From the sequence record PX421306.1: a stretch of DNA of 64,000 nucleotides, one strand, 5' to 3'. Below, one piece after another: positions 39,518 to 47,017 of the stretch (within the stretch, counting starts at the first letter, position 1; every line of letters starts with the position of its first letter). The DNA is from a phage. The translations under genes and the position numbers were made by a program. The notes below the pieces were generated by a model, which had not been told where the DNA came from, did not search any database, and was given only the letters and a program-made list of their open reading frames with translations.

Positions 39518-39991
39518 TTATTTGAATGATTTGACGTACTGAATAGAACCTTTACTATTCACGAAAGCGATTTTACCATTCTTATTATACATGGTAGCAG
39601 TACGCTGATAGCCATAAGTTTGCTTACCGGATTGATAACCAACTAATGCGAAATTATCTTCACCCATTTTATTCTGTTTAGCACGAATACGTTCATGACC
39701 GTGTGCCATAAGAACCTTAGCATCACCAGTTGAAATTGATCTACGAGTTTTTTCATCTTCAACTGTATTAACAAAGTCGTCAAATGAATCAAATTTAGCA
39801 TGGGATTTATTATACAGTTTTCCATCTACTGCATAATTATATCCCTGTACATCCATCTCAACTTCTGTACCATCATCCAATACAGCAGTGATTTTTTGAC
39901 CTTTTTTAAATTTCAAAAGATCAGTAAAAGATTCAGCAATAATTTGAGAATTAATAGCTGCTTCAGTAATAAATTCTTGATATGTTTTCAT
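39518..39991 (-). CDS. capsid-targeted internal protein (IPIII position, divergent)
   Basis: 157 aa; N-terminal capsid targeting sequence MKTYQEFITE with LxE cleavage motif. Confidence 0.65.
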   Translation of the reverse strand: MKTYQEFITEAAINSQIIAESFTDLLKFKKGQKITAVLDDGTEVEMDVQGYNYAVDGKLYNKSHAKFDSFDDFVNTVEDEKTRRSISTGDAKVLMAHGHERIRAKQNKMGEDNFALVGYQSGKQTYGYQRTATMYNKNGKIAFVNSKGSIQYVKSFK

Positions 39992-40005
39992 GTGTATCCT
40001 TTAAT

Positions 40006-40323
40006 TTATTCTTTAGGGAAGTTTTTAGAATATGCATCATAAAGCTTATTTCCAATACGGCGGAAAACTCTAGCCGCAAAACGATTTTCTGGGTTTTTAA
40101 TCATGATTTGCATCATATAAGTACCCGCGTCAGAAAGAGCTTCTTCATAGTACCCATTAATTTCTTTAAGAGTCCTACGTTTACCACCAGGACCATCAAC
40201 AGTAATTTTCCATTTACCTGTAGAAGTGCGGCTCGGTGGCTCAACTTGTTCAATCCAAATATAACCTCCTTCTACACGTTGTCCTTGGGCAGATTCTGCA
40301 ATAAATTCTTTATACGTTTTCAT
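40006..40323 (-). CDS. ipII: internal protein II-like
   Basis: 105 aa; N-terminal MKTYKEFIAE targeting sequence; position adjacent to denV. Confidence 0.65.
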   Translation of the reverse strand: MKTYKEFIAESAQGQRVEGGYIWIEQVEPPSRTSTGKWKITVDGPGGKRRTLKEINGYYEEALSDAGTYMMQIMIKNPENRFAARVFRRIGNKLYDAYSKNFPKE

Positions 40324-40332
40324 ATGTTTCCT

Positions 40333-40749
40333 TTAAATGTAAATATTTTTGCCGTAATACTTGTACCAGTGTGGCTTCATTAAAATTTTTTCATCGAGTC
40401 GTTGTTGACTCAATTTAATAGCTGATTTGCATGGATTATAATCATTTTTCCATTCTGCTGGAATATCACTGATGTCAGGAACTTCAGTATCTTTTATACT
40501 AAACCCACGTTTTAAGCATTCCGTTATAATGTCTGATTGACGCTTTCGCAAAAATTCTAACTTATCGTAAAAGAACGTAACATGACCAGAACCTAAAATA
40601 AACTCGGAAGATATTTTAAAATCTTTAACCCGCTTACCATTTGCCACGTGTTTACGAACTATACCAAAAACACGTGGCAATTCACGGTATTCTGCGATTA
40701 AATGCTGATCAGCAAGTTCAGATACTAAAGTCAAATTAATACGAGTCAT
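40333..40749 (-). CDS. denV: endonuclease V (pyrimidine dimer DNA glycosylase/AP lyase)
   Basis: 138 aa; [17 protein letters not shown]...WYKYYGK matches recalled T4 endo V. Confidence 0.92.
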
Positions 40750-40769
40750 TTTATCCCTCCAAGTAACTG

Positions 40770-40810
40770 TGAATATACTATCACAATTCTAGGAGAAAGT
40801 AAACCACTTT
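40770..40810 (-). promoter_or_regulatory. T4-type early promoter upstream of denV
   Basis: GTTTAC (40799-40804), 18 nt, TGaTAGTAT (40775-40780). Confidence 0.55.
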
Positions 40811-41303
40811 ATAGATTTTTATACGCGTCCCACGTACCAGTTCTAAACGTGGCAATGACTCGTTTTGCACGGTTAGGTGTTTGATTATACCATCTACTTT
40901 TAGCTAAGTTAACTGCTGCTTCATCCCAGCGTTTTTGTTGAAGCATACGTAAAGAATTAGTAAATCCTGCTACGCCGGTTTCTCCCATTTGGAAGACCAT
41001 GTTAATCAATGCGCTGCGGCGAACAGCATCAAGAGAATCATAAACTGGTTTTAATTTAGCATTTCTCAGAATTCCGCGAACAGCAGCATCAACATCCTGA
41101 TTAAAGAGTTTTTCAGCCTCATCTTTTGTAATTACACCATTGCAATTACGCCCAATAGCTTTATCTAATTCAGATTTAGCAACACTTAGTGATGGACTTT
41201 TAGTAAGCAAATGACCAATGCCAATAGTGTAATAACCTTCTGTGTCTTTATAGATTTTAAGTCTAAGACCTTCATCTATACGTAACATTTCAAATATATT
41301 CAT
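40809..41303 (-). CDS. e: endolysin (T4 lysozyme), gene e
   Basis: 164 aa; [33 protein letters not shown]... identical to T4 lysozyme except a few substitutions. Confidence 0.98.
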
Positions 41304-41316
41304 AATACCTCCTAAG

Positions 41317-41337
41317 TATTTATAGAAGGTATTTATA
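41317..41337 (-). promoter_or_regulatory. tandem late promoters (TATAAATA x2) just upstream of the e start codon
   Basis: Two TATAAATA motifs on the minus strand 13 and 26 nt upstream of the ATG; consistent with late transcripts that free the lysozyme RBS. Confidence 0.65.
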
Positions 41338-41339
41338 AA

Positions 41340-41795
41340 TTAAAAGAGGCTGTTCATTATTCGGTAAAGTGAAGGACCCATCACATATTGCCACTGAGTA
41401 CGAGGAATAAGGGCAAAAGCATCCATCTCTGGAATCATAACACCATCTTTATTTTCAAAATAAGACTCGCAATGGCAATTTCTAAACATCTCATGCTCTA
41501 CTGGAATCGTATAATAAAATAACTGTAAGTCTTTATTACTAGAATATTTAAATACACCTAGGTCTTCTAGAAGGTCTGGACTATAATTGCTAAAACCGGT
41601 CTCTTCTAAACATTCTCTTCGTGCTGCATCTAGTGCGCTTAAATCAGAATTTTCTACGCGCCCCCTTGGAATATCCCAGCGATGTGCCATCATTCCAGGC
41701 TTACGAGAACCAGTAACTCGTCCCATAAATAAATCTTTATCTTCTGTCATAAAGATAATACCAGCTGATAATGTTTTCATTTTAATTTCCTGCAT
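41340..41795 (-). CDS. nudE: Nudix hydrolase NudE
   Basis: 151 aa; Nudix box GRVENSDLSALDAARRECLEETGF. Confidence 0.85.
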   Translation of the reverse strand: MQEIKMKTLSAGIIFMTEDKDLFMGRVTGSRKPGMMAHRWDIPRGRVENSDLSALDAARRECLEETGFSNYSPDLLEDLGVFKYSSNKDLQLFYYTIPVEHEMFRNCHCESYFENKDGVMIPEMDAFALIPRTQWQYVMGPSLYRIMNSLF

Positions 41796-45351: not shown

Positions 45352-45615
45352 TTATTTCATATTATTGAAATATTCTTCTGCGATTTCGTCGTTATCATGA
45401 TAAACTTTAGAAGACAGTTTAACATAACCTTCTGCTGTGAACATGTTAATCACAACCTTTACAGTATACCACTGACCGTCTTCATTACCCATTACTGCGT
45501 AAGTTTCAAACATCGGATGATCAGGACCGATAACTTTAATATCATTCACTGTACGACCGAAATCTTCTGAAACGCATTTCATAAAGAAGTTGAACAGTTC
45601 GCCGTAATTATCCAT
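45352..45615 (-). CDS. hypothetical protein
   Basis: Start trimmed to MDNYGELF with GGAG RBS; track extension covers the promoter leader. Confidence 0.5.
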   Translation of the reverse strand: MDNYGELFNFFMKCVSEDFGRTVNDIKVIGPDHPMFETYAVMGNEDGQWYTVKVVINMFTAEGYVKLSSKVYHDNDEIAEEYFNNMK

Positions 45616-45654
45616 TTCATTCTCCAAGTTGTTTTTCTGTATCAGTAGTTGATA

Positions 45655-45695
45655 GTTGTATAGTACCATGGAAGAACAGGGATGTAAACAGTTTT
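45655..45695 (-). promoter_or_regulatory. T4-type early promoter with conserved leader cassette
   Basis: GTTTAC (45684-45689), 18 nt, TGgTACTATAC; same cassette family as 2805-2868 and 29258-29318. Confidence 0.6.
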
Positions 45696-45822
45696 GTGAA
45701 AAATTTTTTAAAAAGTTTTAGGGAATTCTAGGGAAGGGAGGGGCAATTAAAAGGTAGGATAATATATTATAAAGGGTATAAACTAAATGATGCCTAGAGA
45801 GATCCAGAAAGGCCTAGATGCC

Positions 45823-45847
45823 AAAAAGCCCTATCATTTAGATAGGG
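45823..45847 (-). terminator. intrinsic terminator
   Basis: CCCUAUC-UAAAU-GAUAGGG then CUUUUU on the minus transcript, after the stop at 45856. Confidence 0.6.
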
Positions 45848-45855
45848 ATTTAAAA

Positions 45856-46419
45856 TTATTTATCTAGTTTAGTTATTATAGCTTCTGCGGCAGCTTTTAG
45901 CTTAGATGCGGTGTTAATACGATTTTTAATTTCAGTATACGCATCGCCAAGAACATCAAGGCTATCAGAATAAACACTTACGCTATTGCGTTCGCTATTT
46001 GAAATAGAACCTTTAGTTTTACGATCAAAATCGGTGTACACGTCTTGAAGATCACGGGCTGCCTTCTTTGCATCATCCAATGCATCAAGAGCTTTATTCA
46101 AAGCATTAACGTATTTTTTAGTGTCGAACATATTCTTAGAAATTTTAACAGGTGCGCGTTCAGGAGTAGCTAATGCAGATTTAGGAACCTGAGCGCCAGA
46201 TGCCAATTTCTTAGAAATTTTGAAAAACGCTTTATTGAATTTATTTTCTTGACTCATCGTAAAAGAACTATTATCGATGTTGTACATTTCAATAGCTTTA
46301 GCTTTCCACTTAAGAAAATCGCCGCGGTCTTTTGGGTCCAAGTGGAAGAATACTTTAGTAAGATCTGCTTCAGATGGTAATTTTGCTGCTTCGGTTAAAA
46401 ATTCGGCATAGGTTTTCAT
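45856..46419 (-). CDS. capsid-targeted internal-protein-like protein (extra IP)
   Basis: 187 aa; N-terminal MKTYAEFLTE targeting sequence with LxE motif; Lys-rich. Confidence 0.6.
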   Translation of the reverse strand: MKTYAEFLTEAAKLPSEADLTKVFFHLDPKDRGDFLKWKAKAIEMYNIDNSSFTMSQENKFNKAFFKISKKLASGAQVPKSALATPERAPVKISKNMFDTKKYVNALNKALDALDDAKKAARDLQDVYTDFDRKTKGSISNSERNSVSVYSDSLDVLGDAYTEIKNRINTASKLKAAAEAIITKLDK

Positions 46420-46510
46420 TTAAAATCCTTGAAATAATCTATCGGTTGGTTATTAATTATTTATTACTTTGTTATTATCCGTAACAGCATTCTCTATGTG
46501 ATTCAAACTA

Positions 46511-46534
46511 AAAACCCCAACCTTTCGGTCGGGG
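46511..46534 (-). terminator. intrinsic terminator (duplicate of 47077-47102)
   Basis: CCCCGACC-GAAA-GGUUGGGG then U-run on the minus transcript. Confidence 0.6.
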
Positions 46535-46543
46535 CTAAGAATG

Positions 46544-47017
46544 TTATTTGATTTGTTTAGCAGACCAAATGCGGTCTTTGATGATTTTTTGGATGTCTTC
46601 AACATACTCTAGGTCATGAGCATGTGGGTTATCTTTGAAACTATAAGCACGAGCTAGTTTTTGGCCTTCAGTTTTGATTACTAAAAGCTCTTTAAGGATA
46701 GCTTCATATTTAGCGATAATTCCTTTAACAATATTTTTTTCTTGTGCAGCTTTAGGATCTGCTTTAGGAGCAGGTTTACCCGAAGCCTTTGCAAAAGCAG
46801 CACCAGTAGCAACTAAACTTTTCCAGGCCATACTAACCGCATTTCCTGTAAATCCTTCTGCTTTCATGTCGCGAGCAAACTGGAATCGTGATTCGTCAGA
46901 AGCATCTTTATAGGAATATTTACCCGCTGCAATGGCTGCTTTTGCGACAGCTTGAATTTCGGTGCTAGATGCTTCATTTAACACCGCTTCATTTAAAAAT
47001 TGAGCATATGATTTCAT
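46544..47017 (-). CDS. capsid-targeted internal-protein-like protein (extra IP)
   Basis: 157 aa; N-terminal MKSYAQFLNE targeting-like sequence; Ala/Lys-rich. Confidence 0.55.
   Translation of the reverse strand: MKSYAQFLNEAVLNEASSTEIQAVAKAAIAAGKYSYKDASDESRFQFARDMKAEGFTGNAVSMAWKSLVATGAAFAKASGKPAPKADPKAAQEKNIVKGIIAKYEAILKELLVIKTEGQKLARAYSFKDNPHAHDLEYVEDIQKIIKDRIWSAKQIK

Follow-up and report, generated by a model that had tools for sequence, protein, structure and literature searches.

Do two genes that stand as hypothetical in phage annotations encode proteins that are packaged in the head and injected with the DNA? This question is raised by a stretch of 64,000 nucleotides of phage DNA (record PX421306.1, hereafter the window), a mosaic Tequatrovirus (T4-like) segment whose nearest records are Shigella phages SH-1 and SH-2 and Escherichia phage G50 (96-99%, not end to end). 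A preliminary description of the window had reported five open reading frames (ORFs) starting with the capsid-targeting N-terminus of the T4 internal proteins (IPs or Ips), and we found all five on the minus strand at the coordinates claimed. Three of them belong to named Ip families and are treated further below. The two others, ORF A (45856-46419, minus strand, 187 aa) and ORF B (46544-47017, minus strand, 157 aa), lie side by side between e.8 and the rnaC homologue at the 3′ end of a tRNA cluster. The explanation that we consider likely is that both are unrecognised members of the Ip class, made late, loaded onto the prohead core by means of their leader, trimmed by the gp21 protease and ejected together with the DNA.

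We examined the specificity of the leader by scanning the window for the motif MK[TS][YF]x[EQ]F, in all 791 frames that start with ATG and reach 30 aa, and in all six frames for internal occurrences. Exactly five occurrences were found, all at the five ORFs and none elsewhere, for a chance expectation from amino-acid composition of 0.003 with the loose motif and 3e-6 with the strict one. The pattern given in the preliminary description, MK(T/S)Y(Q/K/A)(E/Q)F(I/L)xE, describes four of the starts exactly (MKTYQEFITE, MKTYKEFIAE, MKTYAEFLTE and MKSYAQFLNE). It fails for IPI, which reads MKTFKEFTSTTTPVSTITE/A (the slash marks a gp21-type cut here and below), departs at positions 4, 8 and 10 and has its L/I-x-E site at residues 17-19. 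The same scan of T4, RB32, RB14, RB69, G50 and Kelasse recovered the annotated ipI, ipII, ipIII, Ip4, Ip5, Ip7 and Ip9 genes as well as ORF A and ORF B, and in RB69 it returned two more unannotated ORFs, ORF123c and ORF124c.

For the loading of foreign proteins into the head, the first 10 residues of T4 IPIII suffice, and mutagenesis of this leader has assigned residues 4 and 7 to targeting and residues 8 and 10 to processing, gp21 cutting after L/I-x-E (PMC9026906). In both extra genes the capsid-targeting-like leader occupies codons 1-10 (46390-46419 in ORF A and 46988-47017 in ORF B, minus strand) and carries all four of these residues as Y4, F7, L8 and E10, so that its earlier identification with the T4 capsid-targeting sequence holds. 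Thus the targeting positions 4 (Tyr/Phe) and 7 (Phe) are present in MKTYAEF and MKSYAQF, and positions 8-10, followed by a small residue, form putative gp21-type sites, judged from sequence, L8-T9-E10/A11 in ORF A and L8-N9-E10/A11 in ORF B. Residues 1-15 of ORF B (46973-47017) contain two such L-N-E/A sites in tandem, after E10 and after E15 (L13-N14-E15/A16). A single site is found in the ORF B homologues with a shorter leader (APCEc01, KP01). In AlphaFold2 (AF2) models the leader is a low-confidence region in both proteins, which suggests that it is disordered.

It had been stated in advance that the idea would fall if the N-terminal motif proved to be merely a shared 5′ DNA cassette. This is not what we observed. 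In the leaders of 30 distinct proteins from the loci compared, the amino acids are preserved although synonymous codons vary freely, codon 3 being ACA, ACC, ACG, ACT or TCA and codon 8 being ATT, ATC, ATA, TTA, TTG or CTA. The leader is also retained in relatives with 31-43% identity, as MITFNEFLNE (P0027), MKFKEFLAE (P0011) and MLEYSEFLKE (P0010). Since the amino acids persist in spite of this codon variation and divergence, the pattern argues for selection on the peptide and not for a recently copied piece of DNA. Between ORF A and ORF B themselves, the leader region is 76% identical in DNA over 42 nt.

Both ORFs have recognisable counterparts in sequenced phages. ORF A corresponds to RB14ORF136, annotated as ‘hypothetical, similar to RB69ORF148c/149c’, and ORF B to RB32ORF133c, which the RB32 curators described as ‘hypothetical protein, flanked by 34 bp imperfect direct repeat’, and to g140 of phage fD1. 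By tblastn, ORF B was found in 512 phage records (Tequatrovirus, Mosigvirus, Klebsiella Jiaodavirus, and Yersinia and Salmonella phages) and ORF A in 165. In all annotations inspected they are labelled ‘hypothetical’ or ‘phage protein’, even where Ip4 or other Ips are labelled as internal head proteins, and our literature search found no paper under the published names and tags RB69ORF148c, RB14ORF136 and RB32ORF133c. Both genes come with a ribosome-binding site and a promoter element, and each has a terminator of its own. For ORF B, dN/dS (the ratio of nonsynonymous to synonymous substitution rates) lay at 0.07-0.17 in a comparison of five homologues (dS reaching about 2), and by this measure the gene is under purifying selection. 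An exhaustive phmmer search with ORF A among 1.84 billion representatives gave five matches, none of them annotated, with one full-length 50%-identity cluster and one 31% relative, P0027; on these sequences ORF A is nearly an orphan.

The RB69 homologue of ORF A (RB69ORF148c/149c, L005:11429-11991) is annotated as two overlapping ORFs, and the first 146 aa bear the leader MKTYAEFLTEAAKLP, pointing to a single gene with a frameshift or a sequencing error. In several phages (F26, SfPhi01, clusters P0006 and P0009, L009:1932-2267) a frameshift in the A7 run at 46734-46740 shortens ORF B to 108-111 aa, and the truncated form retains the leader, N-domain and linker only. This frameshift could be a sequencing error, pseudogenisation or a slippage-prone switch. 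What is conserved of ORF B across genera is the N-domain; the Klebsiella and Yersinia homologues carry a different C-terminal module.

The relation between the two proteins was examined as well. The profile of phrog_2280, a family of unknown function, matches both of them (1.4e-53 for ORF A and 5.7e-60 for ORF B). Compared directly by BLASTP and by hhalign (probability 15%), ORF A and ORF B showed the leader alone in common. A clear paralogy is thus not supported by these two methods; the PHROG family and the predicted architecture are shared, and common ancestry beyond that is not established.

If the leaders are removed as predicted, mature ORF A (leader MKTYAEFLTE/AA) would have 177 aa, 19.7 kDa and an isoelectric point (pI) of 9.5 (9.46), and mature ORF B (leader MKSYAQFLNE/AVLNE/A) 142-147 aa, 15.5-16.0 kDa and a pI of 9.4-9.5, a basic character resembling that of the other Ips here. 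The corresponding mature N-terminal peptides would be AAKLPSEADLTK for ORF A and AVLNEASSTEIQAVAK or ASSTEIQAVAK for ORF B. The AF2 models, with pLDDT (predicted local distance difference test) of 74 for ORF B and 61, a low-confidence value, for ORF A, propose a common plan: a small N-domain of three helices is joined by a disordered Pro/Lys/Ala-rich linker (PERAPVKISK for ORF A, GKPAPKADPKAAQEK for ORF B) to a long helical hairpin at the C-terminus.

We searched for characterised relatives at the levels of fold and sequence. Foldseek with the two models gave no match in PDB at E<=0.001 and matches to their own families only in BFVD; a profile search of PDB sequences gave no match, and scans against Pfam and NCBIfam returned no family, with sub-threshold noise only. 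As to the Ips, PF11634, the IPI family, is found in the window at 49633-49920 only, and the mature parts of ORF A and ORF B showed no similarity to IPI, IPII or IPIII (Ip1, Ip2 and Ip3) and, in PHROG and Pfam scans, no cross-match to the Ip4, Ip5, Ip7, Ip9 and Ip10 families. The ORF B profile compared with T4 IPIII matched in the leader only (probability 6%).

Mass spectrometry of purified virions, proposed in the preliminary description as a check, already exists for an orthologue. The fD1 protein g140, 97% identical to ORF B, was scored as particle-associated at the strict threshold in LC-MS/MS (liquid chromatography coupled to tandem mass spectrometry) of ultracentrifuge-purified virions, and the same list includes g129 (the homologue of Ip4) and g146 (the protein at the ipI site) and excludes the neighbours g138 and g139 (e.8) (PMC8309999 Table S3). 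The dataset is a permissive one, as discussed below, and we take the detection as supporting evidence for the packaging of ORF B, not as proof. Taken with the leader, it makes packaging of ORF B decidedly probable; for ORF A packaging appears likely, with somewhat less assurance.

We then considered the anatomy of the locus. T4, which has neither gene, has between e.8 and rnaC a spacer of 284 bp, of which positions 1-215 align to 45615-45831 of the window and positions 202-284 to 47062-47144. This defines a two-cassette insert of 1.23 kb (45832-47061, minus strand) between e.8 (45352-45615) and rnaC (47145-47283). The two aligned T4 pieces overlap by 14 nt, and this overlap falls at the T run of a terminator. 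Each cassette spans from terminator to terminator. Upstream of ORF B, a GAAA-tetraloop terminator, AGCCCCGACCGAAAGGTTGGGGCT (47094-47071, minus strand), ends the tRNA/rnaD/rnaC unit and is present in T4 as a single copy. Its second copy, AGCCCCGACCGAAAGGTTGGGGTT (46536-46513, minus strand), ends the ORF B cassette and starts that of ORF A. Together they form a direct repeat of 30 nt, 97% identical (47068-47097 and 46510-46539), in agreement with the duplicated GAAA-loop terminators reported earlier. A third, different terminator, CCCTATC-TAAAT-GATAGGG with a T run (45829-45847, minus strand), follows ORF A and marks the downstream boundary of the insert. An Rfam scan of the insert gave no match.

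The late promoter that had been noticed on one of the extra genes belongs to ORF B: a T4-type TATAAATA is located at 47064-47057 (minus strand), 47 nt upstream of the start. In ORF A, a near-consensus, late-promoter-like element, AATAAATA, lies 46 nt upstream (46458-46465, minus strand); at the same position RB14 has GATAAATA and ZJUN4 AATAAATA. The module of a terminator followed directly by TATAAATA is found upstream of ORF B homologues in RB32, fD1, ZJUN4 and the Klebsiella Jiaodavirus KpV477. In the last of these the relative of ORF B also has the same location, with the tRNAs on its upstream side and the e.8/e.6 genes downstream. The content of the slot varies: RB32 and fD1 carry the ORF B cassette only, RB14 the ORF A cassette only, and the window, G50, Kelasse and ZJUN4 both, with a split ORF A in RB69 and a frameshifted ORF B plus a fragment duplication in F26.

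Such a layout recalls the promoter-early-stem-loop (PeSL) mobile cassettes of T4-type phages (PMC2839356, PMC4122927), in which direct repeats of a stem-loop terminator rich in G/C, beside a promoter, lie on both sides of an accessory ORF. As in those cassettes, the empty site (T4) keeps one copy of the repeat and the junction falls inside it, at the T run of the terminator, a situation compatible with its excision or insertion through homologous recombination. Recombination at stem-loops or conserved flanks has been proposed for T4-type accessory ORFs and, earlier, for ip genes (PMC2839356), and the cassettes described here match this model in their sequence layout, except that the promoter is late. 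Indeed, the stem-loop adjoins TATAAATA, in contrast to the early, sigma-70-like promoter of PeSL; we found no strong sigma-70-type match overlapping the repeated element, and the repeat is the stem-loop of about 30 nt only. Positions 31-97 of the T4 e.8-rnaC spacer, a stretch of about 66 nt immediately upstream of e.8, are found beside the insert at 45645-45711, and this stretch recurs at 2801-2866, 27794-27836 and 29254-29320 with 85-92% identity. These sites probably have in common an early-promoter or intergenic element, of a type for which a role in the shuffling of cassettes has been proposed.

A simple model can be drawn from these elements. Transcription of ORF B would start late at its own TATAAATA promoter, and that of ORF A at the AATAAATA element, which is weaker, or would come from read-through. 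Both proteins would be bound to the gp22 scaffolding core of the prohead by the capsid-targeting sequence formed by their first 10 residues, and gp21 would then remove the leader after Glu10 at L-x-E/A, with a second possible cut after Glu15 in ORF B. Once mature, the two basic and helical proteins (about 16 and 20 kDa) would remain with the DNA in the head and be ejected into the cell at infection. There, by analogy with Ip1, Ip2 and Ip3, they would most plausibly neutralise a host defence, the first candidate being a variant of GmrSD-type type IV restriction. Granted that the proteins are packaged, we hold an anti-defence function, suggested by this analogy, to be an even matter.

Several observations weigh against our explanation. 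The ORF B homologues a48 and P0005 read FLMTE/A, with Met in place of L/I at P3, and ORF A has no consensus late promoter. Since ORF B is frameshifted in several phages, its full length is dispensable, and its low dN/dS gives no sign of arms-race diversification. Ip genes have been described as confined to two loci, e/denV and ipI/57B, and absent elsewhere in T-even genomes (PMC2839356), and Silas et al. likewise describe two Ip loci (PMC12373910); ORF A and ORF B lie outside both. The curators of RB32 and RB14 named Ip4, Ip5, Ip7 and Ip9 and yet kept ORF A and ORF B hypothetical. The searches in Pfam, NCBIfam, PDB and BFVD found no similarity of either protein to known anti-defence proteins, in fold or in sequence. 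As for the virion data, the fD1 dataset is unspecific, listing 113 of 277 phage proteins, including the chaperone 57A, together with 672 host proteins (PMC8309999), and in the literature we found no virion proteomics covering ORF A (none in the fPS phage paper, 13 abundant proteins for SH7, and sodium dodecyl sulfate-polyacrylamide gel electrophoresis only for Sfk20). Finally, N-terminal cleavage and injection are, for both proteins, predictions from sequence.

We also weighed a different role. The two proteins may enter the head by means of their leader and then work for the head itself: as basic proteins associated with the core or the DNA, they would aid prohead assembly or DNA condensation, as has been proposed for IPIII, and would take the place of IPII and IPIII in phages without these. 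Their basic mature parts, with a disordered Pro/Lys/Ala-rich linker between helical modules, are in keeping with this, and strong purifying selection suits housekeeping better than an arms race. Head assembly is aberrant in T4 mutants lacking IPIII or all three IPs, and gp22 and the IPs are purified together (PMC9026906). Moreover, among seven genomes (loci L001-L005, L007 and L008) IPIII and ORF A or ORF B never occur together: T4 has IPIII and an empty e.8-rnaC slot, whereas RB32, RB14, RB69, G50, fD1 and Kelasse have no IPIII and carry ORF A, ORF B or both. Seven genomes that are not phylogenetically independent make, however, a small sample. T4 has neither gene in the slot, its close relatives have ORF A, ORF B or the pair, and copies with a frameshift are common, which indicates that the two genes are accessory; besides, IPIII itself inhibits a GmrSD system (PMC12373910), so that a head role and an anti-defence role are not exclusive. 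On balance, a role in the head appears unlikely, though it is the chief rival to our explanation.

It is improbable, in our view, that the proteins stay out of the head altogether, as ordinary cytoplasmic late proteins whose leader is a relic of ip-cassette recombination or a favourable translation-initiation region. The similarity of the two leaders in DNA (76% over 42 nt), the shuffling of ip genes thought to occur by recombination at conserved flanks (PMC2839356) and the many obviously non-structural proteins in the fD1 particle proteome would agree with such an origin. But the leader is kept as amino acids with synonymous variation and persists at 31-43% identity, the exact targeting and cleavage residues are present, and the T4 leader of 10 residues alone packages foreign proteins (PMC9026906); since the leader is sufficient in T4, a late-made protein that carries it should be loaded. 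That the two ORFs are chance reading frames in the spacer near the tRNA cluster, a view to which the purely hypothetical annotation and the absence of both from T4 might lend something, can be discarded: it is refuted by the conservation pattern (the low dN/dS of ORF B at dS up to about 2, and the homologues of both ORFs in several genera) and by the peptides of the fD1 orthologue of ORF B in mass spectrometry, to which the ribosome-binding site, promoter element and terminator of each gene can be added. We thus retain as the best explanation that ORF A and ORF B are Ip-class proteins.

How would these proteins compare with known injected proteins? T-even phages possess IPI, IPII and IPIII in T4, and Ip4-Ip13 with more than 30 variants in relatives (PMC2839356, PMC12373910). 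ORF A and ORF B share with them the MKTY-EF(I/L)xE capsid-targeting leader and the L/I-x-E gp21 site; in both groups the proteins are small, basic and non-essential with mutually unrelated mature parts, and the genes are bracketed by stem-loop and promoter elements, their presence varying between close relatives. They differ in lying at the e.8-rnaC site instead of e/denV or ipI/57B, in a predicted mature size of 142-177 residues, larger than most Ips, and in a two-module helical architecture; as packaged, cleaved and injected proteins they are candidates. With Ip1, Ip2 and Ip3, each of which blocks a different GmrSD enzyme while only the leader is common to the three (PMC12373910), they would share the co-injection of a leader-tagged protein with glucosylated hydroxymethylcytosine (glucosyl-hmC) DNA and they share the accessory, phage-variable nature of the genes, but no similarity of sequence or fold. 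Tests of ip4-ip10 with 15 GmrSD groups gave no reproducible hits, and five further GmrSD groups active on T-even phages are without a known inhibitor (PMC12373910). The sequences of ORF A, ORF B and ip4-10 were not found in the supplements of this study.

An enzyme can also be delivered from the head: T4 Alt is a packaged ADP-ribosyltransferase, loaded in the head and injected, an enzyme cargo to which ORF A and ORF B are comparable in their proposed route. Alt, however, is large and has different propeptides, and our two proteins have no recognisable enzymatic domain. On a metagenomic T4-like contig of 2.6 kb (L006), the 31% relative of ORF A, P0027 (1419-2033), with the leader MITFNEFLNES, is directly followed (2092-2526, plus strand) by a protein of 144 aa with an ART-PolyVal ADP-ribosyltransferase domain (PF18760, 1.9e-11) that starts MITFKQFLNES. 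By its sequence this second protein appears to be an enzyme cargo provided with a leader of the Ip type, which recalls packaged T4 Alt.

The three remaining leader-bearing genes were identified as follows, all on the minus strand. The gene at 49633-49920 is ipI, encoding internal protein I, the GmrSD inhibitor (99% to T4 IPI; PF11634). The gene at 39518-39991, which had been presented as a divergent gene at the IPIII position, is Ip4, a known internal protein: it is 99% identical to RB32 Ip4 (PF24183/DUF7412; phrog_3155, ‘internal virion protein’), the RB32 counterpart being annotated ‘Ip4, similar to T2, RB70 Ip4’, and shares with T4 IPIII the 13 residues of the leader alone. Nor is its position that of IPIII, the order being e, denV, Ip10-like, Ip4 here (39518-41303) and e, ipIII, ipII, denV in T4 (L002:2940-4998). 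Similarly, the product of 40006-40323 (105 aa) had been labelled IPII-like, but matches T4 IPII in residues 1-14 only and belongs to the Ip10 family (phrog_3966, the RB69ORF124c family; 72% to VR7 ‘Ip10 putative internal head protein’), a member of which is annotated ‘putative internal head protein’ in phage moskry. We therefore rejected both genes as homologues of T4 IPII and IPIII, the alignment to these proteins, which the preliminary description had suggested making, covering the leaders only. Neither of them has its own TATAAATA; both would depend for their transcription on the two TATAAATA boxes, at 41317-41324 and 41330-41337, that lie upstream of e.

Overall, the minus-strand order runs from Ip4 and the 105-aa gene through denV, e, nudE and e.2-e.8 to ORF A and ORF B, and continues with the homologues of rnaC and rnaD (47290-47406), a 116-aa ORF, ten tRNAs (47773-48604), homologues of trna.2-4, ipI, 57B, 57A and gene 1. 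The rnaC and rnaD homologues, without an Rfam match, were placed by BLAST to T4. The 116-aa ORF (47406-47756, minus strand), between rnaD and tRNA-Arg, has no Pfam family and belongs to the RB69ORF150c/G50_00135 family. The ten tRNA genes include Asn, Tyr and one with a CAU anticodon, without the segB homing endonuclease; T4 has eight tRNAs and segB.

The Ip class, the logic of its leader and the existence of many leader-tagged anti-restriction Ips in T-even phages are already published. What appears to be new is the candidacy of two widespread hypothetical genes and of a third cassette site. Repoila et al. (1994) or Comeau et al. (2007) may have mentioned them before, although the RB32 and RB14 records, curated by experts, give the genes no name. 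Were ORF A and ORF B not packaged, the leader would be insufficient in a natural context, a point useful for the engineering of protein delivery by T4. If they are packaged, the e.8-rnaC slot at the 3′ end of the tRNA cluster would be a third Ip locus. A bolder version, which we regard as rather doubtful, takes this locus to be positionally conserved in Tequatrovirus, Mosigvirus and Jiaodavirus and to supply a distinct two-module injected family inhibiting defences that lack a known phage inhibitor, with the leader delivering enzymes (ART-PolyVal) as well; the targets may then be the five GmrSD groups that Ip1-10 failed to block, or a defence other than restriction.

The two genes are present in at least 165 (ORF A) and at least 512 (ORF B) sequenced phages, many of them therapeutic candidates, and if their products are injected they become the obvious next candidates for host-range determinants. 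Ip genes would then not be confined to the two textbook loci, and a scan for the leader would offer a cheap listing of injected effectors in T4-like genomes, whose repertoire would be broader than the named Ips.

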